In this document: positions 957 to 57,410 of the stretch, in pieces
Layout of the letters: the number at the start of each line of letters is the position of its first letter
Position numbering within the stretch: position 1 is the first letter of the stretch
Assembly: GCA_964577565.1 (NCBI GenBank)
Contig: CAZNZL010000002.1
Coordinates: 10,054 to 74,053 of the forward strand
Source: an uncultured Candidatus Saccharibacteria bacterium
GTDB lineage: Bacteria > Patescibacteriota > Saccharimonadia > Saccharimonadales > JAGQNJ01
Reading direction: 5' to 3'
Length of the DNA: 64,000 nucleotides
Notes under the pieces: model-generated
Seen by the model: only the letters and a program-made list of their open reading frames with translations
Database searches by the model: none
Told to the model about the DNA's origin: nothing
Made by a program: the position numbers and the translations under genes

Positions 957-1031
957 CGCGGGGTGGAGCAGCGGCAGCTCGCGTGGCTCATAACCACGAG
1001 GTCGCAGGTTCGAGTCCTGCCCCCGCAACCA
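957..1031 (+). tRNA. tRNA-Met, initiator type (anticodon CAT)
   Basis: The cloverleaf folds by hand: cgcgggg/tg/gagc-agcggca-gctc/g/cgtgg-ctCATaa-ccacg/aggtc/gcagg-ttcgagt-cctgc/ccccgca/acca. It has the C1:A72 mismatch and CGCGGGG...CCCCGCAACCA ends seen in bacterial tRNA-fMet. CCA is encoded. Confidence 0.9.
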
Positions 1032-5419: not shown

Positions 5420-5842
5420 TTATTGGTGTCGTTCACTGAGGGGGTGTAGCTCAGTGGTTAGAGCAGTCGGCTCAATTGACAATTTGGCTAAGTCTAGGCT
5501 GGGATTATGCGTCTCGGCATGGCAGTTATGGCATAACAAGACACATTTTGCTATTTCGCTTAAGATAGGTTTTAGTTTGCGGTTTGATAACGCCCTGACA
5601 TCTAACTGAAATTCCTTTCCATTTAAATGGTGGAATGCTAACGCAGAAAGATTCTTGGCATAACCACACTGTGAACATTTTCCGCCAAGCTTATTTACAA
5701 AATAAAGCTTTCGTTCTAACCCTCTTTTTTTCTGGGCAGGATATGATTGATGGGCGGCATTTTTACACTTAACCGAGCAAAATAATACCTGTTTGCCGCT
5801 AAGTACTTTGTGGCAAATGCTGCAGTTAGACCCAGCTTTCAT
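5420..5842 (-). CDS. HNH homing endonuclease (140 aa), antisense to the intron and tRNA
   Basis: CxxC...CxxC zinc-finger pairs, AFHHLNG, and LLCHNCHAETH (HNH motif). About 123 of 140 codons lie inside the intron. The last 17 codons read antisense through the tRNA 5' exon. Confidence 0.8.
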   Translation of the reverse strand: MKAGSNCSICHKVLSGKQVLFCSVKCKNAAHQSYPAQKKRGLERKLYFVNKLGGKCSQCGYAKNLSALAFHHLNGKEFQLDVRALSNRKLKPILSEIAKCVLLCHNCHAETHNPSLDLAKLSIEPTALTTELHPLSERHQ

Positions 5843-6122
5843 AACTGTATATTATATTAGATACGTCAAAATGTTTAGGGCTGCTTACATGGGTAACCTG
5901 TAAGTATATCTTGTCAAATTCGGGGAAGCCTCTGGCATTTCACCGTGGTAATCCCGAGCCAAGTCCGCCCTGTGGCGGAAAGGTGTAGAGACTGTATGGC
6001 AGGCACCCGTCGGCTGACGGGTGAAGAGACAGTCCAGACCATCAAACCCGAAAGGGGCAACGAAAGTTGTAGTGGTACGCATAACCGATTGGTCGCTGGT
6101 TCAATTCCAGCCACCCCCACCA
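5440..6122 (+). tRNA. tRNA with anticodon CAT (probably tRNA-Ile2/lysidine type, possibly elongator Met), interrupted in the anticodon loop by a 607-nt group I intron
   Basis: 5' exon 5440-5472: gggggtg/ta/gctc-agtggtta-gagc/a/gtcgg/ct. 3' exon 6080-6122: CATaa/ccgat/tggtc/gctgg-ttcaatt-ccagc/caccccc/a/cca. Joined, they give a canonical 76-nt cloverleaf. The D-arm, variable loop and T-arm closely match the E. coli ileX sequence as I recall it. Confidence 0.8.
5473..6079 (+). mobile_element. Group I self-splicing intron (IC3-like core) with an antisense homing-endonuclease gene
   Basis: The 3' third (about 5905-6079) contains gtcaaattcgggGAAgcc, cccgagccaagtccgcc and gaaaggtgtagagactgtatggcaggcaccc. 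These align with the Azoarcus tRNA-Ile intron core (GUCAAAUUCGGCGAAACC, GCCGAGCCAAGC, GAAGGUGUAGAGACUAGACGGCACCC), recalled from memory. GAAA-tetraloop hairpins are present (cccgaaaggg, caacgaaagttg). The last 5'-exon base is U and the last intron base is G. Splice sites are predicted only. Confidence 0.8.
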
Positions 6123-6127
6123 ACCAT

Positions 6128-6152
6128 AAGCACTTTGAGAGAAGTGCTTTTT
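6128..6152 (+). terminator. Intrinsic terminator after tRNA(CAU); copy 1 of a 25-nt repeated hairpin
   Basis: aagcactt-tgagag-aagtgctt followed by ttttt. A near-identical copy is at 7007-7031. Confidence 0.7.
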
Positions 6153-6185: not shown

Positions 6186-6584
6186 CTAAGATGCTCTAAT
6201 AGGCTGTGCCTGGATAGCCACCAGCTCATTTCCATTATCATAAGCGGTAATGTCGCTGAGTGCTCGGTCAAGATCTGGTTCTGATCCTGCAGACCCCCTC
6301 ACTGCTAAAGCACCAGTTTTGCTAAAAACCACCAATTCCACTGACTTATCTATTTCACCCACAGACATACCAACTCGACCAGCACCACTTACCGCAACTG
6401 CCATTAACAATGCTTCATCATAATCGTCTTCGCTAAGCTCGGCTATTTCGTTTGCGTCCCGACAAGGAGGTCTGACTGCGAGCATACTACATGCTCGCTC
6501 CACACCCCTACCTACCACAGTTGCAACTTCGACTCCATGACCAAAGCTTCGAAATTCACCAATCCTTAGTTCTTCTAGTGACAT
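6186..6584 (-). CDS. Hypothetical protein (132 aa from MSLEEL), cargo of cassette 1
   Basis: SD AAAGGAG lies 6-7 nt upstream of the ATG at 6584. No recognisable motif. Confidence 0.55.
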   Translation of the reverse strand: MSLEELRIGEFRSFGHGVEVATVVGRGVERACSMLAVRPPCRDANEIAELSEDDYDEALLMAVAVSGAGRVGMSVGEIDKSVELVVFSKTGALAVRGSAGSEPDLDRALSDITAYDNGNELVAIQAQPIRAS

Positions 6585-6658
6585 TACGTTCTCCTTTAGA
6601 TACAATTTTCCTCTTAAACAATGTCATTTGCAAGCACAAGAAGCTAGATAGTGTACTC

Positions 6659-11032: not shown

Positions 11033-13495
11033 TTATAAACGAGGACTCAGCCCCACCGACGTAGCGCCCTTCTTTTCGACAATGACACTGACGCGGTAGC
11101 GCACCAGAGGAATGGTGACCATTTTTAAGTGATGCCAATAGGTGTAGCCGTTAGCAAGAAGCGGATCAGCCTCTAGCAGCGGTTTTTTATGTTTTCGGTA
11201 GTCTGCATAGGTATAAACAGCACCCACTATTAACAATGATCCGATGATACTAAGCAAAGCTGCAATAACGCCGGTATTGGCAAGCATGCCGGAGTTTTCT
11301 GTTGCAAAGCCCACCGGGTCAACAATTATGCCGTTTGGAGTTGCATCGGCATCAAGAGACGAGCCGTCTTGTATGCTATAGGTTAACTTTAAAGCAGTTG
11401 AGGCACCGAGAACCTCTTTGCTTACAGTAGAGCCGTTAATATCCGTATATGTTTTAGTAGTAGCATTGTATTTACGTGGTACGAATTTTTCTGGGTTAGC
11501 ATCAGTTTGATGATGCATGTACATCGTAACGGTAGCGGTATCACCTTGTGAACAGTAAAGCGTGAAGTCGGTGAGTCCGTATGGATAGTCATAGCCAGTA
11601 TCTTTTTGTGGTAGGGTTGTCGCCTTATGGTGCGTTACGGTTCCATTCTCAACACAACCAGCAGTCACTAACGTAGCATAGCTGGCCGTACCGTTTGTAG
11701 TTGTTACCGCAAACGACGTAACCGTGGGTTGAAGTTTGTCGGGCGTGCCGTCGTTATTACCATCACCGTTATTAGGCGCAGCGTCTTCTATTGCATCGGA
11801 TAGGCCATCGGCATCAAAATCATCAGCAGCGCCAACGGAAATATTTCTAGCAAATTCGCTGGTAGCACCAAAGCCAGAACTCGTCGTGTTGTCTATCGCC
11901 GTGGTAGTTGCCGAAAGAAATTTGTTACTAAAGTCACCGCTTACGGTAAGCGTGGCGGTTTTATTGCTACCCGGCGCAACAGCCGTTGCTGCTCCGAGAT
12001 AGGTTTCACCAGGCCCATAGCCAGACATAGAGCGATTATTGCTGGCAAAAAACTCTACACGGTAGGTGTTGCTTGGCGAGTCTGCAGCATCAAGATCATA
12101 CGTAACTGTTAGCTGGTTGCCAACTTGCTGGGCAGTTTTAAGTACCGGGGTGTTAATATAGCCATTGGGACCAGTATCAACGTCACCCGGATCGTTCGGG
12201 GTAGGACCCTTAGAGGTATACTCGTTTGGCCAAAAATCGGGCGGAAAGTCTGTATCCTTACCGTGCACAAGTTCTATGCCAATATCCTTAATAAGTACAC
12301 CGGCAATTTCTTTAGTCTTCATTTTAAATATTGAATTACCCAGGATCGCATTTTTTTGAGGAGTCGCCCCACCACCAATTTGCACAATATCCAAAGAGTT
12401 AACGACAACCCCGCCGGCTACATCGGCAATGACATTAGCCTCATTTTCACCGGTGCCACCAATAAGGTTTTCAGCTGCAAATAATTGCAGAACAACACCC
12501 GGACCCTGGACTATATCGCTGTCATCAATTAACTCACCCTTATAATCAGTTCCAATAAAATTGCCTTGAACCGTATTATGGGTGGTAAATATAACAATAG
12601 CAGCCTCGAGCCCTCCGTTATACACATTAGCCTGGCCAGGCTCTCCGCCGCCTATTGTAATGTTTTGAGCAACCGGGTCATTGCCGAGCAAACTTGAACC
12701 AATCACTGTACCGACAGAGTTTGTCAGCTGCGTTGCGCCGTCTTTACCAATGCCAATATAGTTACCATACATAGTAGATTGGGTGCAGTCCATTGACACT
12801 GCCGAATTATTTTTATTTTGCGAAGCAGTAATAATATTGCGATTTTCAGGGCTACTACCCCCGATAGCCAGGTTTGAACAGCCAGGTGTAGTATTAATGC
12901 CACCCCCATTACCACTGCCCGCCTCTACGCCCGATGGCTTGACGCCAATATAATTACCCTCCAACGTTATATCATTTGAATTTATGACTATTTGGGTGGT
13001 TGTGTAGCTATGGATTGATATACCCCTAACAGTACTGCCGTCAACACCCTGCAAAATTAACCCTGACATAGGCGCCCCGGCATTAGCACCATTAATTTCA
13101 ATAGTGATGGTGCCGTTAAACGGTTCGGGGCTGATGGCGGTATTTGCCTGAGAGCCAGGTTGCGAGTAACCGTCAATAAGCAGGGGCTCGGTTGGCACAG
13201 GCAAAATTCCTGTCGGAGCTATGGTATGAACCCCTGTCCCCGGAATATTAAATTCAATGATATCCACGTCGCCGGAATTGCCATTGCTATTTGCGTCTTC
13301 CATTGCTTTAAACAGCGAGCCTTCGCCCGAATTCGCGGTCGTTGTTACGGTAAATACTTCTGGTGCTGCAGAAGCGTGGCCTCTAAAAAGCAGCAACACT
13401 AGGCAATAAAAAAGTACCATTGCAGCTATAAACAACAACGTAGACGTATCTCGACGTAATGTGTCTAGGTAATTTTTTGCTCCATACATACCCAT
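11033..13495 (-). CDS. Large surface protein paralog 1 (820 aa): signal peptide, beta-helix region, TSP3-like Ca-binding repeats, beta-sandwich region, LANTG sorting signal, TM helix, conserved tail
   Basis: Motifs: APEVFTVTTTANSGEGSL, IDGYSQPGSQANTA, DADGLSDAIEDAAPNNGDGNNDGTPD, then LANTG + hydrophobic segment + YRKHKK + a 48-aa tail. Confidence 0.85.
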   Translation of the reverse strand: MGMYGAKNYLDTLRRDTSTLLFIAAMVLFYCLVLLLFRGHASAAPEVFTVTTTANSGEGSLFKAMEDANSNGNSGDVDIIEFNIPGTGVHTIAPTGILPVPTEPLLIDGYSQPGSQANTAISPEPFNGTITIEINGANAGAPMSGLILQGVDGSTVRGISIHSYTTTQIVINSNDITLEGNYIGVKPSGVEAGSGNGGGINTTPGCSNLAIGGSSPENRNIITASQNKNNSAVSMDCTQSTMYGNYIGIGKDGATQLTNSVGTVIGSSLLGNDPVAQNITIGGGEPGQANVYNGGLEAAIVIFTTHNTVQGNFIGTDYKGELIDDSDIVQGPGVVLQLFAAENLIGGTGENEANVIADVAGGVVVNSLDIVQIGGGATPQKNAILGNSIFKMKTKEIAGVLIKDIGIELVHGKDTDFPPDFWPNEYTSKGPTPNDPGDVDTGPNGYINTPVLKTAQQVGNQLTVTYDLDAADSPSNTYRVEFFASNNRSMSGYGPGETYLGAATAVAPGSNKTATLTVSGDFSNKFLSATTTAIDNTTSSGFGATSEFARNISVGAADDFDADGLSDAIEDAAPNNGDGNNDGTPDKLQPTVTSFAVTTTNGTASYATLVTAGCVENGTVTHHKATTLPQKDTGYDYPYGLTDFTLYCSQGDTATVTMYMHHQTDANPEKFVPRKYNATTKTYTDINGSTVSKEVLGASTALKLTYSIQDGSSLDADATPNGIIVDPVGFATENSGMLANTGVIAALLSIIGSLLIVGAVYTYADYRKHKKPLLEADPLLANGYTYWHHLKMVTIPLVRYRVSVIVEKKGATSVGLSPRL

Positions 13496-13497
13496 GC

Positions 13498-15969
13498 CTA
13501 CCCCAGTTGCGGCGGTGATGCAAGCTTTTCTTTCTTTTCAATACTTATACTAAACCTATACTTGGCCAGCGGAATTGTCACCACCCGTAAATGGTGCCAG
13601 TAAGTGTAGGTACTAGCTAAGAATGGGTCAGCTTCTTGCAAAGGTTTTTTGTGTTTGCGGTAATCAACGTAGGTATAGATAGTGCCGAGTATGATCAGGA
13701 AGCCAGCTGCCACTGCTAACCCTGTTAAGAAGCCGGTATTGGCTAGCACGCCGGTTTGTTCACTAGCCAAACCTACCGGGTCTACAATAATACCGTTTTC
13801 TTCACCGTCGTCGTCTAGGTCGCCACCGTCAGTAAGGCTATAGGTGAGCTTAAGCGCCGTGGAAGCCCCCAAGACTTGACTGGTGAGCGTAGAACCCGGT
13901 ATATCCGAGAACGTATTGGTATGGGCATTAAACTTGCGTGGAATGTAGCGCTGTGGTTCATCTTGGGTATGTACGTACATAGTAACGTTCACGGTATCAC
14001 CCCGTGAGCAGTAAAGGGTGAAGTCGGTTAAACCATAGGGGTACTCGTAACCATTATCTTTAACCTGCAAAGAATTAGCAGCCAGCGATGAAACGGTACC
14101 ATTTTCTGAACAACCTTCAGTCAGGAGGGTTGCGTAGACGGCTGCGCCGTTAACTGTAGCCGTAACGTAGGATGTTACAGTTGGTTGGTTTTTGTCGGGT
14201 ATACCGTCGTTGTTACCATCGCCGTTGTTGGGTGCGGCATCTTCAATAGCGTCTGGTACACCGTCGGCATCAAAGTCGTCGGCTGAACCAACACTGATGT
14301 TTTGGGCAAATTCGCTTGTCGAGCCAAAACCAGAAGGAGTGTCGCCATCAATTGCAGTGGTCGTAGCAGAGAGAGCTTTACCGGTGAAATCACCATTAAC
14401 GGTTAGGGTAGCAGTTTTATTAGTACCAGGCTCAACGCTCGTAGCGGCACCAAGATAGGTCTCGCCCGGACCATAGCCAAAGATAGAGCGTTCATTATTG
14501 GCAAAAAACTCAATTCTATATGTATCGCTAGGCGAATCAGCCGCATCAAGGTCATAGGTGATGGTTAACTGATTGCCAACTTGTTGGGCAGTTTTGAGGA
14601 CGGGGTAATTGATAAAGCCGTTGGGACCATCATCGGTATCGCCGGAGTCATTAGGATTGGGGCCGCGGTTTTCGAAACCGTCTGGCAAGAAATCGCCATT
14701 GCTATCAGTATACATCGCGTGATCTATGCCTAGGTTGGAGTTGCCAATGCCAAGTAAGTTAAATGGTGAGATGCTATGAATAGCATTTCCGAGCACAGCT
14801 ATGTTGGATGATAACGCAGCGATTTCAATTCCAGACCCCTTAACGCCAGCGATGAGGTTACCTTCACCTTCTCCTGTGCCGCCGACTAAACTTGATGGGC
14901 TAATTACAGAGACTATCCCCATGCCGTTAGTTATAGTAGAACGAACTTTGCCAGTATAGTCAGTGCCTATATAATTACCCTGAATGACAGCTGAGTTACC
15001 AGAGATAGATACATTTGCGGTGCCACCAGAAATGAGATTTCTCATACCGGCTTGCGGGCCCCCAACAATCACTTCATTGCTAATAATTTGTATGCCGAAG
15101 CTAAATGGAGCTGTCAAACCATTAGCATCTGCTGCATCTGGTGTTAGATCAGTAACGCCATCTTTGGCGACACCAATATAGTTTCCATAAATAGTAACCC
15201 CGTTGCCTGGCCATATTGCAGCACTTATATGGTTTTGTGAGAAACTGTATACAATATTGCGGTCACTCGGGTCTGTTCCTCCGACAGCACTGTTTTCGCC
15301 AATGGCTAATACCCCGAAGTCATTCCTGCTACTACCCGGTGTTTTGCCATCTGATCGTACTCCTAGGTAGTTTCCGCTTGACTTGGTGTTGCTGCCTACG
15401 AGGACTAGATTGCCGTTAGAGGGATTGCCGTTCGTCAACGTACTGAAGTTATATATTGATAACCCCTTAACTATACTCTCGGAAGCCATTATCGCTATCC
15501 CGCTAGCCTGCTGGGGAGTATCTGGATTGGCAAGCTCAGAGCCGTCAATCTCTATCTTCACTACGCTATTAATTGGTTCGGGACTAGGAGCGGTATTAGC
15601 AGCTGCCCCCGGCTGACTGTAACCGTCTATGGTAACTTTCTCTTCAATAGCTGGAAGGAATGTTTGTGGTTTTATGATATGTGGTCCGTCGCCGGGAATA
15701 TCAAATTCTATGACATCCATGTCAGATCCGTTGCCGTTACTGTTGGCATCGGTAATGGCCTGGCGTAAACTGCCTTCGCCTAAATCATTCGTATTAGTAA
15801 CCGTAAAGGTTTCGGGAGCAGCGTAAAGCGGCTTACTCAAATATAATGCAGTACCCATAGTAAGCAATACGGCTAGAAGCCATAAAAAAACTAGTGAGGA
15901 TGAGTATTTTAGACGTTGTTGTGCTATCATGCAGTCCTGCTTTAAACTTCTTACGTATAAGTATACCAT
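13498..15969 (-). CDS. Large surface protein paralog 2 (823 aa; the true start is probably MIAQQ at about 15930)
   Basis: Same architecture. The 3' ~1.1 kb is about 90-100% identical at the DNA level to paralog 3. Its stop codon lies 2 nt from the start of paralog 1. Confidence 0.85.
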   Translation of the reverse strand: MVYLYVRSLKQDCMIAQQRLKYSSSLVFLWLLAVLLTMGTALYLSKPLYAAPETFTVTNTNDLGEGSLRQAITDANSNGNGSDMDVIEFDIPGDGPHIIKPQTFLPAIEEKVTIDGYSQPGAAANTAPSPEPINSVVKIEIDGSELANPDTPQQASGIAIMASESIVKGLSIYNFSTLTNGNPSNGNLVLVGSNTKSSGNYLGVRSDGKTPGSSRNDFGVLAIGENSAVGGTDPSDRNIVYSFSQNHISAAIWPGNGVTIYGNYIGVAKDGVTDLTPDAADANGLTAPFSFGIQIISNEVIVGGPQAGMRNLISGGTANVSISGNSAVIQGNYIGTDYTGKVRSTITNGMGIVSVISPSSLVGGTGEGEGNLIAGVKGSGIEIAALSSNIAVLGNAIHSISPFNLLGIGNSNLGIDHAMYTDSNGDFLPDGFENRGPNPNDSGDTDDGPNGFINYPVLKTAQQVGNQLTITYDLDAADSPSDTYRIEFFANNERSIFGYGPGETYLGAATSVEPGTNKTATLTVNGDFTGKALSATTTAIDGDTPSGFGSTSEFAQNISVGSADDFDADGVPDAIEDAAPNNGDGNNDGIPDKNQPTVTSYVTATVNGAAVYATLLTEGCSENGTVSSLAANSLQVKDNGYEYPYGLTDFTLYCSRGDTVNVTMYVHTQDEPQRYIPRKFNAHTNTFSDIPGSTLTSQVLGASTALKLTYSLTDGGDLDDDGEENGIIVDPVGLASEQTGVLANTGFLTGLAVAAGFLIILGTIYTYVDYRKHKKPLQEADPFLASTYTYWHHLRVVTIPLAKYRFSISIEKKEKLASPPQLG

Positions 15970-16100
15970 AGCTATAAATCCATTTTATATGTTGACACTA
16001 TCATGGCAGCTGTTTACGTATGTTGTTTAGCGTTTATGATTCAGTTAACCAAAACCCCACTAACCACCACTCTGTCTTTATATTGATTAGTGCCGGTATA

Positions 16101-16167
16101 GCTATAAACAAAAACGTAGATCTATCTAAACCTAATGTAGAAAGACGTTTTTTTCATATCCACCCAT
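16101..16167 (-). pseudogene. Relic of the 5' end of a lost array member
   Basis: 16101-16169 aligns with 13425-13497, the start region of paralog 1 (gctataaaca.aaacgtaga...tttttt...cat.c..cccat.cctacccc). It reads MGGYEKNVFLH-stop versus MGMYGAKNYLD. Confidence 0.55.
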
Positions 16168-16169
16168 AC

Positions 16170-18611
16170 CTACCCCAGTTGCGGCGGTGATGCAAGCTTT
16201 TCTTTCTTTTCTATGCTTATACTAAACCGGTACTTTGCCAACGGAACTGTCACCACCCGTAAATGGTGCCAGTAAGTGTAGTTACTAGCTAAGAATGGGT
16301 CAGCTTCTTGTAAGGGTTTTTTGTGTTTGCGGTAATCGGTATAGGTATATATGACGCCAACTAAAAGCAGAAAACCAACCGCAACTGCTAAACCGGTCAT
16401 GAAACCCGTGTTAGCGAGCACCCCAGAGCTTTCGCTGGCCAAGCCAACGGGGTCAACAATCACGCCATTTTCGGTAGCGTCATCATCAAGGTCACCTCCA
16501 TCAGTAACGCTATAGGTTAGCTTCAACGCGGTTGAAGCACCAAGCACTTGGCTCGTTAGATTTGAGCCAGGAATGTCGGTAAAGGTATTGGTACCAAGGT
16601 TAAACTTACGAGGAATAAAGCGCCGTGGTTCATCTTGGGTATGTACGTACATAGTAACGTTCACGGTATCACCCCGTGAGCAGTAAAGGGTGAAGTCGGT
16701 TAAACCATAGGGGTACTCGTAGCCGTTATCTTTAACTTGCAATGAATTAGCAGCCAGCGACGAAACAGTGCCGTTTTCAGAACAGCCCTCAGTCAAGAAC
16801 GTAGCATAGACGGCCGAACCATTAACCGCGGCTGTAACGTAAGATGTTACGGTTGGTTGGACTTTGTCTGGGATGCCGTCATTGTTGCCGTCGCCATTGT
16901 TAGGTGCGGCATCCTCAACTTCATCAGGCACGCCGTCAGCGTCAAAGTCCTCAACAGAACCAATACTGATATTCTGAGCAAATTCGCTGGTTGAGCCAAA
17001 ACCGCTGTCTGTTGTGTTGTCAATTGCGGTAGTGGTGGCAGACAGGGCTTTATTTGAAAGGTCGCTGCCCACCGTTAGCGTAACGGTCTTATCGGTACCG
17101 GGCGCAACGCTATCAGCTGCACCCAGATATATTTCACCAGGACCATTACCAAAAATTGTCCTACTGTTACTTGCAAAGAACTCTACCCGATACGTATCAC
17201 TCGGCGAATCTGCGGCATCAAGATCATACGTTATGGTTAGCTGGTTGCCAACTTGCTGGGCGGTTTTAAGAACGGGTGTGTTAATAAAGCCATTAGGGCC
17301 AGTGTCAGTATCGCCTTCGTCGTTTTGGGTAGGACCAGCCGACTCAATAGTATTGGGCACGCTATCTGGCGGGTTGTCACTATCATCGGTTTTTAATAAA
17401 TCGATTCCAAGATTGACCTCACCCAAATCGAGATAGCCATACACGGCAACATCTCTAATAGAGTTTCTAAGCATTGTATTTTTTGTAATTGGCGCGGTAA
17501 TGTCTAGGGCGGATAGACTATTTTCTATAACACTAATACCAAAGCCCCCGATTCCAGCAATGGTGTTACCCTCGTTGTCGCTTGTTCCACCAATAAGGTT
17601 ATTTGAAGCTCCCAGCAACATGGTTACACCTCCGCCTTTTGAAAAATTGTCGTGAGCGTTACCTTGGTAATCGGATGCAATGAAATTACCCTGAACTATA
17701 TTATTGTTTTCAAAAATTACAATATTTACAGCTTTAGCATTTGCAATAACATTGGCTTCTCCGGTATCAGGACCACCAATGACATTATTGGTACTTCGGC
17801 TCTGGCCAGGGCTTCCAACAGAAATAGTAGTATCATAATTACCTATCTTTGTAACACCATCTGGTGCAACACCTATAAAGTTACCCTTCACGAAACTATC
17901 AGTACAAGCAAGCATAACAGCCGAACGCCCCGTTGTTTGTTCGCCGGCAATTACGTTTCTGTCCCGAGGATCGGTGCCTCCAATTTGTGCACCCGAAGCA
18001 GTATTTTGGCAGTTTATACCACTGTCAGTACCCTCTAGAGGCTGAAATGTACCTTGAGCATCAATCTGCAAGTAATTACCACTTATCTTTACATCATTGG
18101 CCCCTATAAAAATCTGAGCAAATTTTGCCCCCCTAATAGATAGACCCGAGATTACGCTTTCATCAGCAGAAATCTCCAGTGCGCTTTCTTCAGATGTGGT
18201 CGCGACAATTTCAATACGTATTGTTCCGTTTAAGGGGCTAGGCGCAATTGCAGTATTGGCAGCGGCACCTGTCTGAGAATAGCCATCTATAGTAACCTTT
18301 TCTGTAATGGCGGGGAGCCCTGACTCGAGCGATATGGTGTGTACGCCGTCGCCAGGAATATCAAATTCTATGACATCCATGTCATCCGGGTTATTATTAT
18401 CGTTCGCGGCAAGAATTGCAGCCCGCAATGATCCATCACCTGAGTCATTCGTGTTAGTAACCGTAAAGGTTTCGGGAGCAGCTAAAGCGGTATCGCGGGT
18501 TAGTAGCAAAAAACTAAAAGTTATTAAAAGTACCACATAAAACCACGTCAAAATAGATGGCGTAAGGTGAGCTGCTTGTGATCTTTTTTTCATATCCCTA
18601 AATTTAAGCAT
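16170..18611 (-). CDS. Large surface protein paralog 3 (813 aa)
   Basis: Same architecture: GDGSLRAAILAANDN, IDGYSQTGAAANTA, TSP3-like repeat, LANTG + TM + YRKHKK + tail. Confidence 0.85.
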   Translation of the reverse strand: MLKFRDMKKRSQAAHLTPSILTWFYVVLLITFSFLLLTRDTALAAPETFTVTNTNDSGDGSLRAAILAANDNNNPDDMDVIEFDIPGDGVHTISLESGLPAITEKVTIDGYSQTGAAANTAIAPSPLNGTIRIEIVATTSEESALEISADESVISGLSIRGAKFAQIFIGANDVKISGNYLQIDAQGTFQPLEGTDSGINCQNTASGAQIGGTDPRDRNVIAGEQTTGRSAVMLACTDSFVKGNFIGVAPDGVTKIGNYDTTISVGSPGQSRSTNNVIGGPDTGEANVIANAKAVNIVIFENNNIVQGNFIASDYQGNAHDNFSKGGGVTMLLGASNNLIGGTSDNEGNTIAGIGGFGISVIENSLSALDITAPITKNTMLRNSIRDVAVYGYLDLGEVNLGIDLLKTDDSDNPPDSVPNTIESAGPTQNDEGDTDTGPNGFINTPVLKTAQQVGNQLTITYDLDAADSPSDTYRVEFFASNSRTIFGNGPGEIYLGAADSVAPGTDKTVTLTVGSDLSNKALSATTTAIDNTTDSGFGSTSEFAQNISIGSVEDFDADGVPDEVEDAAPNNGDGNNDGIPDKVQPTVTSYVTAAVNGSAVYATFLTEGCSENGTVSSLAANSLQVKDNGYEYPYGLTDFTLYCSRGDTVNVTMYVHTQDEPRRFIPRKFNLGTNTFTDIPGSNLTSQVLGASTALKLTYSVTDGGDLDDDATENGVIVDPVGLASESSGVLANTGFMTGLAVAVGFLLLVGVIYTYTDYRKHKKPLQEADPFLASNYTYWHHLRVVTVPLAKYRFSISIEKKEKLASPPQLG

Positions 18612-36922: not shown

Positions 36923-39907
36923 ATGGGTAGGAAATTCAAAAAGAAACAGATCCTCTTGATTTTAGTGATTTCATTTTTGTTTTCTAGTAGCTTATTTAAC
37001 CTCGGGAGCCCGAAAGTACATGCTGCCAGTGGTATTGTCATCAACGAAATTATGTATAATCCTCTCTCTGATAATGGCGATGATGAATTTTTAGAATTAC
37101 ATAACCCGACCGACTCTAGTGTAGATATTAGCGGTTGGTGTTTTACTGAAGGTATAACGGTGTGTTTTGACGATAACACCAGTATTGAGGCAAATGGATA
37201 TCTTGTTATATCACCTAACGCCGACCAAACCCAAATATCATATGGAGTAACCCCTTCAGCTATTTATACCGGCAGCCTGTCTAATGGTGGCGAGACTCTA
37301 ACGCTGCGTAACACCGCAAATGAGATAGAGGATTCGGTTACGTACGATGACGCTAGTCCTTGGCCGCTTTCACCCGATGGTTCAGGCCCCTCGCTCGAAC
37401 TTAAAGAGGCAGCTCTAGACAATTCGCAGGCCGCTTCTTGGGGCGCAAGCCTTTCAAACGGTGGTACGCCTGGTGAGATTAACAGTTTGACCGGCACAGA
37501 ATTGCCCACTATTTCAACTATGTCGAAACCATCTAATGTCCAGGCAAGTGATTCGCCGACAATAACAGTAATGGTAGATAATGCAACATCTGTGAGTCTC
37601 GTGTATCGCGTAGGGTTTGAGGCAGAAACAACACTTGATATGTATGATGATGGCTTGCACGGGGATGGTATATCAGGTGATGGAATATATGGTGCCGAGA
37701 TCCCTGCTCAAACTGCGAGGAGCTTGGTTCGCTATAAAGTAACCGCTACAAATGATGATGGAGTGGTCTCAAAGCCCAGTGCAGATGAGTCGATCAACTA
37801 TGAAGGCTATATTATCAAAGACCCCTCCCTTACCAGTTCTGCTCCAATTCTAGAGTGGTTCATTACGGACGATGATTATGATGACCTTATCGCAACCCCT
37901 GATGATCAAAAAATTTATTTTCCCGCTGTAGTCGCATATGGTGATCAAGTATTTGATAACTCTGAAATCCGTCTAAAGGGGGAGTATTCACGTACTTTTC
38001 CTAAAAAACCATTTAAAGTAAAGCTACCGTCTGGCCACAAGGTTGAGATACCAGGTTCTTTTGATGTTCCGGTTAGTGAGTTTCACTTAAATTCTGAGCT
38101 TGCGAGCAACGAATACATTCTATCGCTTATAAGTTGGCGAGCATTCGAATATGCTGGCTTTCCCGTGCCACAACGTACTAAGATACAGCTTCAGCGTAAC
38201 GGCCAATTCGAGGGTGCATATACGATGACTGAAAAATATGATACCGAATGGTTTGCTCGCCACGAAGATTATCAGAATGATGAAGTGTACGAAGACTGGG
38301 GCGAGAAGGTTCAACCTGAAGACGGCAACACAGCCAACCGTGACGACTGGAAGACTAATTTAACCACCTTAACCGGTGATGCAAAACGCAACTATCTTCT
38401 AGATAACCAAGACATTGCTAACACCATTAACTATATGGCGGTATCAGCTGCGATTCGGAGCCACGACTGGAGCGCTGAGTCTAATCACTTCTCGTTTAAG
38501 GATGTAGATGGTACCGGCAGGTGGCGCTTCTTGCCATGGGATCTTGATTTGACATTCACAAACATTGGGATGACCTTAGATCCACCAGTACAAGGCTACG
38601 GATATATGATTGACCCCTATGATACGGTGTCGTATATCACACCAGAAAGTCGCTTTCATGTTACGGCTATATGGGATGATCCAATACTTAAGCAAATGTA
38701 TTTGCGGCGTGTTCGAACATTGATAGATGCATTTTACACTCAAGGTAGACTTGAGCAATGGATTGATGAAGAATTTGCAATCGCAGAAGATCCTGCAAAT
38801 TTAGATTACGAATTATGGTTTGATTATGAAAATGGTCCAGGCAGCGTTTATGATCAAGTACGATCATTTATGCCAGGCTTAGGACTCGACCCAGATAATC
38901 CTGCTGATTGTGTAACTGTTTTTCAATCATTTTTACCATTCATTGACTTCAGTGAGCTTCCCGACCCGATAACTGCAATTGAGCCTCTTACCCCCGCAAA
39001 TAGAGCGTACATTCTTAAACAGAAATTGCTGATACAGCTCGAAAAATACAATACTATCTATTTGCAAAATAACTTACTTGTACCCTCGGCTACAAAGAAT
39101 ACCGTTGTAATTAACGAGATTATGTATAATCCAGCAGGTGGCAGTGAACATGAATTCATAGAACTCCACAACCCTCACGATGAAGCAATTGACATGTCGG
39201 GCTGGAAACTTAACACTGGTAGCGATTTTATCTTCCCTGGTGGTAGCGTAGTACCTGCAAACGGTTATGCCTTAGTCGTGAAGAACGACCCAGCATTTAG
39301 AAGCCATTATGGTGGCGGAAAGCTGATTTTCGGGCAGTTTAATGATACCTTATCAAATACCGGAGAGACCATCACCTTAAAGCGAGCCGATAACTCGACT
39401 GTAAGCAACGTATCGTACGGTATCAGCGGATCTTGGCCAGCCTCCGCGGCCAACCAAGGCCGAAGCCTCAATCTACGCAATAGCGACAAAAATCAATCTG
39501 AAGCATGCTCCTGGGCGCCAAGCAGCAGCAATGACGGCTCGCCCGGTGCTACAAATAGCATTGACGATACGTGGAGCCCGGTGGCCTGCAACCCAGCAAC
39601 TGAGACGATCACCAATCCAGTTGGCACTGTAATAAGTACCCTTAAGCGAACCAGTCTCGCGTTTGCACATATAGTAACGTCTGCGGGGATGTCGGAAGAA
39701 ACGCCAACAACGGAAGAAACTATTTCATTTGATAAGCGTACAGGGAACACAATACCCAAACCACATGAAGATACTACACACGCAATCGATCAGAAGAAAA
39801 AGAACTCTATCTTAAAGCCCATCGTAATCATCTGTGGGTCAATCGGTGGTATAGGATTGTTGTTGTTTATTAGTAGTAAAGCAGCCATGTTCCGTAAACC
39901 CGGATAA
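36923..39907 (+). CDS. CotH kinase family protein flanked by two lamin-tail domains, with a C-terminal TM anchor (994 aa)
   Basis: LTD signature twice (IVINEIMYNP...DEFLELHNPTDSSVDISGW and VVINEIMYNPAGGSEHEFIELHNPHDEAIDMSGW). CotH-like core (SEIRLKGEYSRTFPKKPFKVKLP). Signal peptide and terminal TM helix. Confidence 0.85.
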   Translation: MGRKFKKKQILLILVISFLFSSSLFNLGSPKVHAASGIVINEIMYNPLSDNGDDEFLELHNPTDSSVDISGWCFTEGITVCFDDNTSIEANGYLVISPNADQTQISYGVTPSAIYTGSLSNGGETLTLRNTANEIEDSVTYDDASPWPLSPDGSGPSLELKEAALDNSQAASWGASLSNGGTPGEINSLTGTELPTISTMSKPSNVQASDSPTITVMVDNATSVSLVYRVGFEAETTLDMYDDGLHGDGISGDGIYGAEIPAQTARSLVRYKVTATNDDGVVSKPSADESINYEGYIIKDPSLTSSAPILEWFITDDDYDDLIATPDDQKIYFPAVVAYGDQVFDNSEIRLKGEYSRTFPKKPFKVKLPSGHKVEIPGSFDVPVSEFHLNSELASNEYILSLISWRAFEYAGFPVPQRTKIQLQRNGQFEGAYTMTEKYDTEWFARHEDYQNDEVYEDWGEKVQPEDGNTANRDDWKTNLTTLTGDAKRNYLLDNQDIANTINYMAVSAAIRSHDWSAESNHFSFKDVDGTGRWRFLPWDLDLTFTNIGMTLDPPVQGYGYMIDPYDTVSYITPESRFHVTAIWDDPILKQMYLRRVRTLIDAFYTQGRLEQWIDEEFAIAEDPANLDYELWFDYENGPGSVYDQVRSFMPGLGLDPDNPADCVTVFQSFLPFIDFSELPDPITAIEPLTPANRAYILKQKLLIQLEKYNTIYLQNNLLVPSATKNTVVINEIMYNPAGGSEHEFIELHNPHDEAIDMSGWKLNTGSDFIFPGGSVVPANGYALVVKNDPAFRSHYGGGKLIFGQFNDTLSNTGETITLKRADNSTVSNVSYGISGSWPASAANQGRSLNLRNSDKNQSEACSWAPSSSNDGSPGATNSIDDTWSPVACNPATETITNPVGTVISTLKRTSLAFAHIVTSAGMSEETPTTEETISFDKRTGNTIPKPHEDTTHAIDQKKKNSILKPIVIICGSIGGIGLLLFISSKAAMFRKPG

Positions 39908-54827: not shown

Positions 54828-55889
54828 GTGAAGGTGGCGATCGTCCATGATTGGCTAATCGGCGGGGGTGCCGAACGCGTTGTCGAGGCACTGCATCAAA
54901 TGTACCCCGATGCGCCAATTTATACGTCGTATTGCAGCGATGAATGGCGGCAGCGTCTCGATAATAAAGTTGTTACTGGTCCTCTTCAAAGATGGCCGTT
55001 TTCACGGTTGCGTAAGTATATTCCGTTTTTGCGGATATGGTGGTTTACATCACTCAAATTTGATGAGTTTGACCTGGTTATTTCTTCTAGCGGGGCCGAA
55101 GCCAAGGGTATAAAAACTGGCCCTAATACTTTACATGTTAACTATTGTCATGCTCCAACTCATTATTACTGGAGTAGGTATGACGAATACCTAAAAAATC
55201 CGGGCTTTGGCATTTTTGACCCGTTAGCTCGATTGGGCTTGCGTATGTTGGTGGGCCCCTTAAGACGCTGGGACTACAAAGCCGCCCAACGACCCGACCG
55301 AATCATTGCAAACTCTTCGTACACTCAGGCACAAATAAAAAAATATTACAATCGTGACAGTGAGGTAGTCTTTCCTCCTGTTGATGTTGAAAAATTTAAG
55401 TCGCACAATAACCGCACACGAAGCGGTTTTGTGATTGCTGGCAGACAAACACCCTACAAACGTTTTGACTTGGCTGTTACGGCTTGCACTAAACTACAGC
55501 TGCCGTTGCTAGTTATCGGTAACGGGCCTGAGCATAAAACGCTCCGCCAACTTGCTGGCCCTACCGTTTCTTTTTTGCCAAACGCCAGCGATGAAGAGGT
55601 CGTAAAGGCTTTTCAACATGCTGAGGGCTTTATCTTTCCTGGGGTTGATGATTTCGGTATTGTTGCAGTTGAGGCAATTGCTGCTGGCTGTCCTGTTATT
55701 GCCTACAAAGACGGCGGCGCCTTAGATTATGTCGTCCCTGAAAAAACTGGCATATTTTTTGAAAAACAAACCGTAAACAGTTTGGTAGAGGCTCTGTCTC
55801 GATTTAAGTTCTTTGCTGTTAAAAAGATACCTATCCCCGTAGACTCTGAAAGCTTTAAAACTAATTTACAAAAACACCTACGTCCCTAA
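54828..55889 (+). CDS. Glycosyltransferase family 4
   Basis: GTG start, VKVAIVHDW. GT-B fold with an E..G....EA-type C-terminal motif (GVDDFGIVAVEAIAAGCPVIA). Confidence 0.85.
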   Translation: MKVAIVHDWLIGGGAERVVEALHQMYPDAPIYTSYCSDEWRQRLDNKVVTGPLQRWPFSRLRKYIPFLRIWWFTSLKFDEFDLVISSSGAEAKGIKTGPNTLHVNYCHAPTHYYWSRYDEYLKNPGFGIFDPLARLGLRMLVGPLRRWDYKAAQRPDRIIANSSYTQAQIKKYYNRDSEVVFPPVDVEKFKSHNNRTRSGFVIAGRQTPYKRFDLAVTACTKLQLPLLVIGNGPEHKTLRQLAGPTVSFLPNASDEEVVKAFQHAEGFIFPGVDDFGIVAVEAIAAGCPVIAYKDGGALDYVVPEKTGIFFEKQTVNSLVEALSRFKFFAVKKIPIPVDSESFKTNLQKHLRP

Positions 55890-57184
55890 ATTTGACCATG
55901 GGTTACGGTATGCCAAAGCGGTTGAGCGTACCTATTGTATTCGACTAGATTACCGTCGTTCTGCATGATGAGATACGCCGGGTTCGGGCTCACACCCGAC
56001 CACCATAAGGGACGACCGCTAGATGAGTACACAACGAGGTTGCCGTCTGTCTGAACCGCCAAGAAAGCGCCCGGTTTGCCATAGGTATAGCTATGCCACA
56101 GCGGTTTATAGCCTGGTGCATACAACACCAAATTGCCATCTGGCTGCATAATCAGACTGTAACGCCGATCGCTTGATCGAATATACTGATTTGTGCGCAT
56201 AATTTGGCCAGGCCACAAGACGTTCGTTCCAACAAACACCGAGTAGTCCGGAATAACAACGCTGCTACTCCATAACGGTCCCCCACTTGAATTGTAGGTT
56301 ACAAGATTTCCATCAGTCTGCAAAACGAGTGAAGCAGCACCGTAACGCACCCCGCTATTCCATAACGGCCTACCATTGACGGCATATATGACTAGGTTAC
56401 CATCACTCTGAAAGGCAGCATACGCGCCCGGATTGCCATGCGTATGCGTATGCCACAGTGGACGATACCCACTACCATAATGCACCAGGTTGCCATCTGG
56501 TTGCATCATAAGCACGTGTCTCGTGTTTACCGACTCAATATATTGGTTTGAACGAATTACCTGGTTTGGTCTAAGCCAGTCTGTTCCTAAAAACTGAGCG
56601 TCTCTTACGCCGGCAGGCAGCACACCTGCAGGTTGTAATGATGACAAGCCAAAATCTATAAACGCACTTAACCCAAGCTGGCTTGGCGTACCAGTTCGGG
56701 TACCAAAACTACCCGTACTGCCCCAATTATATTCAGAAATTGTAACTACCCCATTGTTTACGCTCTCTACAAAGACAACGTGGCCATATCGGTTATCTAC
56801 TCCAACCGTCTTTGGTGCTGGCGAAGCACTGACACTTAATCCTCTTGCTGGTGCATTATTATCCCACGCGCCTGCATTACCTAAACCAGTTACTTTTGAA
56901 GCAGCAACGCCCTGGTTTAGTAGCTTCCAAGCAACATAATCGGTACAGTTCCGGTAATAATAATTGCCCGTTGCCGGGTTGCGCACGCGCCCCTCATGCG
57001 ACCATTCATAGTTCGGACATTTACCACTTACCTTCCCAGTCGCAACACAAACTGCTCCACTCCACGGATAGCCGCCGCTGGCGTACGCTTTTGCTCGCAC
57101 CACAAGAGGTGACAGCATACTAATTATAGTAGCACCCGCCAAGACAAGACGCACACCGCGCCGAACAGGCATTGCAAGCACCAT
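55886..57184 (-). CDS. Secreted CHAP amidase fused to two bulb-type (GNA-like) mannose-binding lectin domains
   Basis: CHAP residues NCTDYVAWKL / GHVVFVESV. Six QxDGNLVxY subdomain motifs (QPDGNLVHY, QSDGNLVIY, QTDGNLVTY, QPDGNLVLY, QTDGNLVVY, QNDGNLVEY). Confidence 0.85.
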   Translation of the reverse strand: MVLAMPVRRGVRLVLAGATIISMLSPLVVRAKAYASGGYPWSGAVCVATGKVSGKCPNYEWSHEGRVRNPATGNYYYRNCTDYVAWKLLNQGVAASKVTGLGNAGAWDNNAPARGLSVSASPAPKTVGVDNRYGHVVFVESVNNGVVTISEYNWGSTGSFGTRTGTPSQLGLSAFIDFGLSSLQPAGVLPAGVRDAQFLGTDWLRPNQVIRSNQYIESVNTRHVLMMQPDGNLVHYGSGYRPLWHTHTHGNPGAYAAFQSDGNLVIYAVNGRPLWNSGVRYGAASLVLQTDGNLVTYNSSGGPLWSSSVVIPDYSVFVGTNVLWPGQIMRTNQYIRSSDRRYSLIMQPDGNLVLYAPGYKPLWHSYTYGKPGAFLAVQTDGNLVVYSSSGRPLWWSGVSPNPAYLIMQNDGNLVEYNRYAQPLWHTVTHGQI

Positions 57185-57410
57185 TCCGTTACCCCCAATA
57201 TTAAATTGTGAGCACAATATAGACCTGGTTACGCATTAATAAAACTGCTCGCGCTTAAATTTTTGAAACGTAAGAATTTTTTTGATCAAGTTTTCTCTTT
57301 TGGTCGTTATAAAATCTACAATCTGTAAAAAATACAGCTAATTCCCTGCTCTGGTTATGCTAATAACTTCAAAGTTGGTATATTAAGTCATGTTGAGAAG
57401 TACTATCATG

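Follow-up and report, generated by a model that had tools for sequence, protein, structure and literature searches.

An antisense HNH endonuclease gene in a group I intron that very probably splits a tRNA-Ile2 gene of a Saccharibacteria-like host

Introduction

Group I introns have been known in the anticodon loops of bacterial tRNA genes since about 1990. The Azoarcus intron, which lies after the anticodon, has a 5′ exon that ends in CAU and pairs with the guide GUG. tRNA-Ile2 is the usual bacterial reader of AUA codons, and its C34 is the base that is modified by TilS. Here we analyze a stretch of 64,000 nucleotides (hereafter the window) from an uncultured Candidatus Saccharibacteria bacterium (assembly GCA_964577565.1, contig CAZNZL010000002.1, positions 10,054 to 74,053 of the forward strand). 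We conclude that it very probably contains a tRNA-Ile2 gene of a Saccharibacteria-like host into which a mobile, self-splicing group I intron is inserted at the U33/C34 junction. Within this intron, an HNH endonuclease gene lies in antisense orientation.

Several described systems bear on this locus. The Azoarcus intron is 205 nt long and has no open reading frame (ORF) (PMC13168695). The 33/34 junction is a well-characterised intron site in tRNA-fMet (Nakagawa et al. 2026, PMC13011429), and Table S5 of that survey lists IC3 introns at 33/34 of Acidobacteriota tRNA-Ile2 (PMC13011429). Long tRNA introns are rare in the survey, with 12 of 333 exceeding 500 bp, and HNH genes are reported only from tRNA-Asn introns of Patescibacteria and tRNA-Leu introns of Bacteroidota (PMC13011429). 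Outside bacteria, the endonuclease gene of I-DirII (Didymium) is antisense in a nuclear rDNA group I intron and has its own promoter (PMC3073962), and the L2066 introns carry antisense His-Cys box endonuclease genes, likewise with their own promoter (PMC9548176). No bacterial antisense intron endonuclease gene was found in the literature searched, including the 2007 compilation of bacterial and phage genes (PMC1995217), a coverage that is incomplete.

Results

A sequence-only reading of the window had proposed that a perfect 76-nt cloverleaf with anticodon CAT appears when 5473–6079 is removed. This is borne out by ARAGORN. When 5440–5472 (33 nt) is joined to 6080–6122 (43 nt), the program folds the 76 nt into a cloverleaf that has a CAT anticodon and ends in an encoded CCA; for the unspliced genomic sequence, with introns allowed, it gives ‘tRNA(cat) i(34,607)’. 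The split gene goes undetected by default ARAGORN and by the Rfam tRNA model in the 64-kb window, where the sole tRNA that they report is an initiator-type tRNA(CAU) at 957–1031 (+) with a C1xA72 mismatch. The gene is laid out as follows.

5440–5472 (+): tRNA-Ile2(CAU) 5′ exon, tRNA positions 1–33, ending in U33 (ARAGORN; recurs in 54 related loci)
5473–6079 (+): predicted group I intron of 607 nt at the 33/34 junction of the tRNA (ARAGORN i(34,607); RF00028 at 68.6 bits; covariation)
6079 (+): terminal guanosine (omega-G), predicted 3′ splice site (window sequence and ARAGORN)
6080–6122 (+): tRNA-Ile2 3′ exon, starting with C34-A35-U36 and ending in the encoded CCA (ARAGORN; uninterrupted ligated genes in relatives)
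6128–6149 (+): terminator-like hairpin plus a downstream T run, 6 nt past the CCA end of the tRNA (consensus scan only)

The 607-nt insert is preceded by U5472 and its last base is G6079, as the sequence-only reading had stated. A CA dinucleotide repeat at both borders permits two further registers; the present one was chosen because no alternative register both follows a U and ends in G, and in homologues whose introns begin with U the register is unambiguous. That every related locus has omega-G carries no independent weight, since the search pattern demanded this G, and the support that is independent of the pattern comes from the window and the tRNA reading frame only. Rfam RF00028, the scan that had been suggested beforehand, matches 5857–6060 (+) over the full model with 68.6 bits (gathering score 50, E 2.7e-15), and in six of six related loci tested the match lies on the strand opposite the ORF. 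In our assessment, 5473–6079 is a real group I intron for which self-splicing is predicted. Of the core motifs quoted earlier, GUCAAAUUCGGGGAAGCC is at 5913–5930, CGAGCCAAG at 5955–5963 and GGCACCC at 6002–6008; the third quoted block reads GAAAGGUGUAGAGACU and not GAAGG. The GAAA tetraloops are found at 6050–6053 and 6062–6065.

The gene is one of a family. Loci L001–L064, drawn from three homologous-protein look-ups and a genome scan, were searched for the same architecture, with the exon pattern and anticodon-stem pairing required. It was present in 54 fetched loci that represent 45 distinct introns (46 with the window), each combining an Ile2-type tRNA(CAU) split at 33/34, an intron of 594–684 nt and an HNH ORF on the opposite strand. 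Because of this recurrence, the split gene is not a chance arrangement. The scan, in which two peptide patterns were run against a single genome of each GTDB species, by itself gave 54 loci, with about 35 in Candidatus Saccharibacteria/Saccharimonadales, about a dozen in Peregrinibacteria, Gracilibacteria or Peribacteria, one each in a Krumholzibacteriia member and in Aridibacter (Acidobacteriota), and a few distant HNH relatives in other contexts. The HNH-bearing tRNA-Ile2 intron family spans more than 40 species-level Patescibacteria genomes and at least four phyla overall. Endonuclease identity is 67–85% within Saccharibacteria and 55–63% between classes. When introns are allowed, ARAGORN recovers the split tRNA in 7 of the 54 related loci, five of them with the correct CAU. 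Phage genomes searched by blastn with the ribozyme gave no match.

Two further observations concern individual members. The introns of L040, L051, L052 and L053 (632–684 nt) contain extra insertions in P8 or P6a besides the endonuclease gene. In L005 and L007 (4153–4227), the split tRNA-Ile2 of a Saccharibacteria metagenome-assembled genome (MAG) has another CAU tRNA for a neighbour, at a distance of about 1.2 kb and on the opposite strand.

The ribozyme fold was evaluated by counting pairs in 41 distinct ‘mini-introns’, from which the interior of the ORF had been excised, against a structure of 69 pairs in 17 helices. Its elements are listed here.

5468–5472 (+): P1 5′ strand CGGCU, pairing with 5879–5883; predicted 5′ splice site after U5472
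5484–5496 (+): P1-extension 5′ strands, UUGGC 5484–5488 and GUCUA 5492–5496; the same bases encode LDLAKL on the minus strand
5858–5869 (+): P1-extension 3′ strands, UAGAU 5858–5862 and GUCAA 5865–5869, closing the endonuclease insert (pair counts)
5878–5883 (+): internal guide sequence GGGCUG; P1 3′ strand at 5879–5883, P10 pair G5878-C6080 (pair counts)
5884–6079 (+): ribozyme body (Rfam alignment and 41-sequence pair counts)
5884–5904 (+): P2
5910–5916 with 5997–6003 (+): P3
5920–5925 with 5952–5957 (+): P4
5929–5930 with 5947–5948 (+): P5
5958–5959 with 5983–5984 (+): P6
5964–5979 (+): P6a
5990–5994 (+): P7 5′ strand GACUG, pairing with CAGUC 6030–6034; forms the pseudoknot with P3; expected guanosine-binding helix
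6004–6023 (+): P8
6038–6041 with 6073–6076 (+): P9.0-like pairing
6047–6056 (+): P9
6057–6070 (+): P9a

Standard pairs occupy 94.2% of the 2,798 pair cells; after the 3′ partners were slid by 1–3 columns, 29–42% of the cells were paired. Both sides change in 43 of the 69 pairs, and the observed measures were reached by none of 500 shuffles. The core helices are 91–100% paired with compensatory changes present; in P7 (helix 13), which is 100% paired, G5994-C6030 becomes A-U in 11 sequences. All helices from P1 to P9a are supported by these counts, including the P3/P7 pseudoknot, the P9.0-like pairing that precedes omega-G and the stems that clamp P1.

The position of P1 deserves particular attention. 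The guide GGGCUG is conserved and lies directly before P2, some 400 nt downstream of the 5′ splice site. P1 (helix 1) is 96% paired, the splice-site wobble U5472.G5879 is U.G in all 41 sequences, and the G5878-C6080 pair is kept in 40 of them. The two Acidobacteriota sequences have GGACU in the exon and GGGUUG as the guide, such that the exon G-to-A change is matched by a C-to-U change in the guide and the P1 pair next to the U.G switches from G-C to A-U. The gap is bridged by the P1 extension, in which UUGGC (5484–5488) pairs with GUCAA (5865–5869) and GUCUA (5492–5496) with UAGAU (5858–5862); these helices (2–4) are 86–94% paired, and both sides change in 8 of their 10 pairs. Given the distant guide and the clamp stems, the endonuclease gene therefore occupies the terminal loop of an extended P1, and every one of the 45 distinct related introns has its HNH ORF in the P1 loop. 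Since the conserved LDLAKL peptide is encoded by the bases that form the 5′ strands of the clamp, this segment is under a double constraint. Internal guides closer to the 5′ splice site, at GGCU 5486–5489 or at 5497–5502, were rejected because these bases vary as synonymous codon changes without the pairing being kept; the GGGCUG before P2, by contrast, covaries with the exon.

The sole long ORF of the intron is on the strand opposite to both the tRNA and the intron. The sequence-only reading had ascribed about 400 nt of extra intron length to an inserted endonuclease gene; this attribution holds, with the orientation of the gene, antisense to tRNA and intron, and its place in the P1 loop having gone unnoticed.

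5420–5842 (−): HNH homing-endonuclease ORF, 140 aa (ORF list, homologues, invariant residues, PHROG, dN/dS)
about 5765–5824 (−): zinc ribbon, residues 7–26
about 5504–5686 (−): HNH domain, residues 53–113

In a collection of 5.8 billion proteins, the ORF has 203 homologous clusters at E ≤ 0.001, mostly with 65–85% identity and 135–145 aa, several of which are named as Candidatus Saccharibacteria proteins; exact-sequence look-ups of the ORF and of the neighbouring SDR protein gave no match. In PHROG, two families of HNH endonucleases are hit, with E values of 9e-21 and 4e-19, and in tblastn the ORF matches phage genes annotated as HNH endonuclease. A profile search of the PDB with the endonuclease gave nothing meaningful. 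Across 22 aligned members, an N-terminal CxxC...CSxxC zinc ribbon is followed by invariant C56, C59, H71, H72, N87, C104, C107, H108 and H112, which constitute an HNH signature with two CxxC pairs. In L014 and L033–L036, the second zinc motif is CNNCH, CGNCH or CSNCH rather than CHNCH; because these ORFs remain intact, the histidine at that position is dispensable.

Codons were compared among 34 intact copies. The proportion of non-synonymous differences (pN) is below that of synonymous differences (pS) in 561 of 561 pairs; synonymous sites are saturated, with a mean pS of 0.85, and the ratio of the corresponding rates (dN/dS) has a median of 0.11 in unsaturated pairs. The minus-strand ORF is therefore a real, selected protein-coding gene and not a chance frame.

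The last 17 or so codons of the ORF cross the 5′ exon in antisense and end at the stop codon at 5420–5422. In the window and in other Saccharibacteria, this tail reads IEPTALTTEL over the exon; in other lineages, the ORF ends by the intron boundary or takes the exon in a different frame. A functional exon-overlapping tail was considered and rejected. Because other lineages stop or shift frame, and because the predicted local distance difference test (pLDDT) score of the tail is below 50, the exon overlap looks incidental. In L032 and L034–L036, one extra base close to the beginning of the intron puts the ORF into another frame, and its stop codon TGA is composed of two intron bases and the complement of the exon base U33.

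As to the expression of the antisense gene, the 45 nt before the ATG were aligned in 46 sequences (the window and the 45 distinct introns), which revealed one element.

5849–5854 (−): −10-like box, presumed promoter; TAATAT in the window, TAtaaT as family consensus, spanning −12 to −7 relative to the endonuclease ATG (alignment of 46)

The position of the hexamer is fixed, with T at −12 in 41/46, A at −11 in 43/46 and T at −7 in 44/46 sequences. Such conservation is the pattern of a −10 box. The six nt between the hexamer and the ATG read nnnGTT. No Shine-Dalgarno sequence precedes the ATG. An upstream TTGACG was rejected as the −35 element, as it lies 9 nt from the −10 box. We infer from this arrangement an intron-internal promoter and a leaderless or near-leaderless antisense mRNA.

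As for mobility, L012, L043 and L052 have an HNH ORF that is disrupted, either by in-frame stop codons or by a frameshift, all with an intact ribozyme, and these three look like decaying endonuclease genes. A published 244-nt Acidobacteriota tRNA-Ile2 intron that has no endonuclease shares, by eye, short blocks flanking the ORF position with L054, the Acidobacteriota copy that bears one; such blocks would be expected after the gene had been cleanly lost or gained. Uninterrupted tRNA-Ile2 genes with the predicted ligated junction, GAGCAGTCGGCT^CATAACCGATTGG, number at least 120 in a metagenome scan. Among the matches listed, one equals the spliced product of L032/L036 over 76/76 nt, and another matches the spliced tRNA of L052 over the compared core positions 8–69. 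These matches give independent support for the predicted splice junction. The features typical of homing genes are thus found together here, namely a gene inside an intron, a patchy distribution, empty sites and decayed copies, and the intron is probably mobile and active.

The host was placed by means of its AspRS, whose relatives are named Candidatus Saccharibacteria or Saccharimonadales; contigs in runs SRR7082966 and SRR7082976 encode an AspRS identical to that of the window. The remainder of the window has a gene content typical of Saccharibacteria genomes, and several other loci were noted.

6186–6605 (−): 139-aa ORF directly downstream of the tRNA, with no Pfam match
11033–18611 (−): three tandem ORFs of 813–823 aa, two of which were tested and have no Pfam domain; the first two are paralogues with 52% identity, each with an N-terminal and a near-C-terminal hydrophobic segment; probably surface proteins
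36923–39907 (+): 994-aa protein with CotH-kinase and lamin-tail domains
55886–57217 (−): repeated putidacin-L1-type lectin modules and an amidase-like segment, below the NCBIfam cutoff; the product may be a lectin-like bacteriocin or a cell-wall hydrolase

Discussion

The features above suggest the following course of events. Transcription of the plus strand would yield a pre-tRNA of about 683 nt. The end of the 5′ exon, CGGCU (5468–5472), would pair with GGCUG (5879–5883) of the guide about 400 nt downstream, placing U5472.G5879 at the splice site, while the covarying stems formed by 5484–5496 and 5858–5869 would span the distance and loop out the insert. The P3–P9 core (5884–6079) would then direct the attack of a free guanosine and, subsequently, the attack on the bond after omega-G6079. 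The product would be the 76-nt tRNA, in which C34 comes to sit in a normal anticodon loop, open to lysidine formation, only after the exons have been joined. The insert is predicted to encode a 140-aa enzyme with a zinc ribbon and an HNH domain, probably transcribed from its own −10 box at 5849–5854, which would avoid having to translate an ORF buried in the tRNA precursor. Its presumed targets are tRNA-Ile2 genes that have no intron; the enzyme would nick or cut them near the anticodon arm, and repair would copy the intron into them.

Several observations weigh against parts of this scheme. First, there is no canonical −35 element at 16–18 nt, and a sigma-70 scan returned no minus-strand promoter. 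Second, Pfam HNH (PF01844) is below significance both for the protein alone and for the 22 family members, with weak zinc-finger matches only; the AlphaFold2 model from the 22-sequence alignment is poor (mean pLDDT 59, and below 50 in the C-terminal tail), and Foldseek with this model against the PDB gave noise only. Third, P10 is weak, as 68% of cells are paired beyond G5878-C6080. Fourth, the alignment used for pair counts was made after removal of the ORF and the structure was drawn on the window, which somewhat favours that structure; the size of the pairing effect and the number of double changes are, however, well in excess of such a bias. Fifth, synonymous sites are saturated when copies are compared; the data therefore fit a long vertical persistence no less well than recent homing, and much of the distribution could be old and vertical.

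The last point leads to the alternative that fares best, namely that the intron splices but is no longer mobile, and that it has been inherited vertically with the HNH protein kept as a maturase, as a host nuclease or as a regulator of tRNA-Ile2 supply. Saturated synonymous sites in genes whose proteins are still 65–85% identical indicate old divergence under selection, the higher identity within Saccharibacteria (67–85%) than between classes (55–63%) is as expected from vertical descent, and the host genomes are reduced and prone to shedding useless DNA. However, the element is also found in Krumholzibacteriia and Acidobacteriota, the three decaying copies together with the endonuclease-less and intron-less alleles form the pattern of an invade-decay-loss cycle, and there is little precedent for maturase activity among HNH proteins. 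We therefore regard a non-mobile intron as improbable and favour a mobile one.

A second alternative concerns the identity of the host gene, which might be an elongator tRNA-Met rather than tRNA-Ile2. ARAGORN does label it Met, as it does any CAU tRNA. The best E. coli matches of the spliced tRNA among 5,426 complete genomes are genes annotated tRNA-Ile, at 87% identity over positions 8–76. One of these genes, named tRNA-Ile by PGAP, was retrieved for inspection of its anticodon, which is CAT; it is therefore tRNA-Ile2, the lysidine tRNA, in agreement with the earlier remark that the tRNA body resembles E. coli tRNA-Ile2 (ileX). In addition, the published survey assigned Ile2 to the close Acidobacteriota relative, and a tRNA-Met is accordingly very improbable. 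Initiator identity is excluded because of the anticodon stem and of the G1-C72 pair, a pair that is absent from the initiator at 957–1031. By these characters, the interrupted gene is a tRNA-Ile2 of the CAU, lysidine type on a non-initiator body, with the intron adjoining C34 on its 5′ side. Finally, the notion of a dead tRNA gene with a defunct intron and a chance open frame on the minus strand, for which one could cite the absence of the ORF from the called genes of the protein collection, can practically be dismissed, as all core helices are intact and covarying, the ORF is under strong purifying selection and matches HNH families, and the architecture is kept in 45 distinct related introns.

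Having settled on a split tRNA-Ile2 gene with a probably mobile intron, we would raise one speculative idea, to which we give little credence at present. Over some 420 nt, the HNH mRNA and the pre-tRNA are fully complementary. In the window, transcription of this mRNA must also run through the 5′ exon and the tRNA promoter region. Mutual repression between endonuclease transcription and tRNA-Ile2 maturation is conceivable because of this complementarity, and the intron could act as a semi-domesticated, long-retained switch on AUA decoding; saturated synonymous sites together with strong protein conservation would fit long retention. If true, this would place a switch on AUA decoding in genome-reduced Patescibacteria.

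What appears to be new here is the antisense HNH gene in the P1 loop, the conserved −10 box, the covarying clamp helices, and the prevalence of the element in Saccharibacteria and related groups. The findings also have a practical side. Because default tRNA finders miss the split gene, many Saccharibacteria and Peregrinibacteria genomes would seem to have no tRNA-Ile2.

Comparison with known systems

The insertion between positions 33 and 34, proposed by the sequence-only reading as a difference from Azoarcus, is confirmed, though not as a peculiarity: it is a known site of cyanobacterial tRNA-fMet introns, and IC3 introns at 33/34 of tRNA-Ile2 are listed (PMC13011429). The window ribozyme (5878–6079) is 86% identical to the survey’s Acidobacteriota Ile2 intron and 87% identical to its Nitrospirota fMet intron, both labelled IC3. 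The insertion site and the subgroup are therefore already catalogued, and by this measure these two, rather than the Azoarcus intron, are the nearest described relatives. The group I assignment of the earlier reading is carried by RF00028, and its IC3 placement, indirectly, by 86–87% identity to introns that others classified as IC3; the core probably belongs with the IC3 tRNA introns.

With the IC3 33/34 introns of CAU tRNAs (cyanobacterial fMet and Acidobacteriota Ile2), the window intron shares the U33/C34 site and a guide that reads GGGCUG or GGGUUG. It differs from them in three respects. First, most of the survey’s IC3 33/34 introns are 240–285 nt long with no ORF, whereas the window intron has the antisense HNH ORF. 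Second, where the survey’s tRNA-fMet introns do bear an ORF, it encodes a PD-(D/E)XK enzyme of the I-Ssp6803I type rather than an HNH enzyme (PMC13011429). Third, the hosts of the present family are mainly Patescibacteria, a phylum in which the survey, which covered complete genomes, reports no IC-type tRNA intron (PMC13011429). To that picture, the present family adds an IC3-like tRNA-Ile2 intron with an HNH gene, found widely among Patescibacteria MAGs.

The Azoarcus intron resides in the same host tRNA species and has the same kind of compact core. The blocks AAAUUCGG.GAA.CC, CGAGCCAAG and GGUGUAGAGACU are presumably shared between the two. Unlike it, the window intron lies before the anticodon and has an extended P1, an extra P9a hairpin and the endonuclease gene. 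That an insert of 400 nt in the P1 loop appears to be tolerated by way of clamp helices may serve the engineering of Azoarcus-type ribozymes.

Regarding the endonuclease, the closest described case is found in the group IA introns at 35/36 of Patescibacteria tRNA-Asn, whose HNH proteins belong to the same subfamily, with 48% identity over the 63-aa catalytic domain to the ORF of a Paceibacteria intron (E 4e-17). These introns are in the same phylum as the window and likewise in a tRNA anticodon loop (PMC13011429). Their HNH genes are, however, on the sense strand of IA-type introns and have no N-terminal zinc ribbon, whereas the window gene is antisense and has one.

With respect to gene orientation, the parallels are I-DirII and the L2066 introns. 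As in the window, their endonuclease genes are antisense to a host RNA gene that is not translated, and the same expression problem arises, for which the window offers a putative promoter. They differ in being eukaryotic, with a Pol II promoter, a spliceosomal intron and polyadenylation, in using a different nuclease family, and in residing in rRNA rather than tRNA genes. The present locus bears on the route by which an endonuclease within an untranslated RNA gene can be expressed, and the element looks like a bacterial counterpart of the self-promoted antisense endonuclease genes of nuclear rDNA introns.

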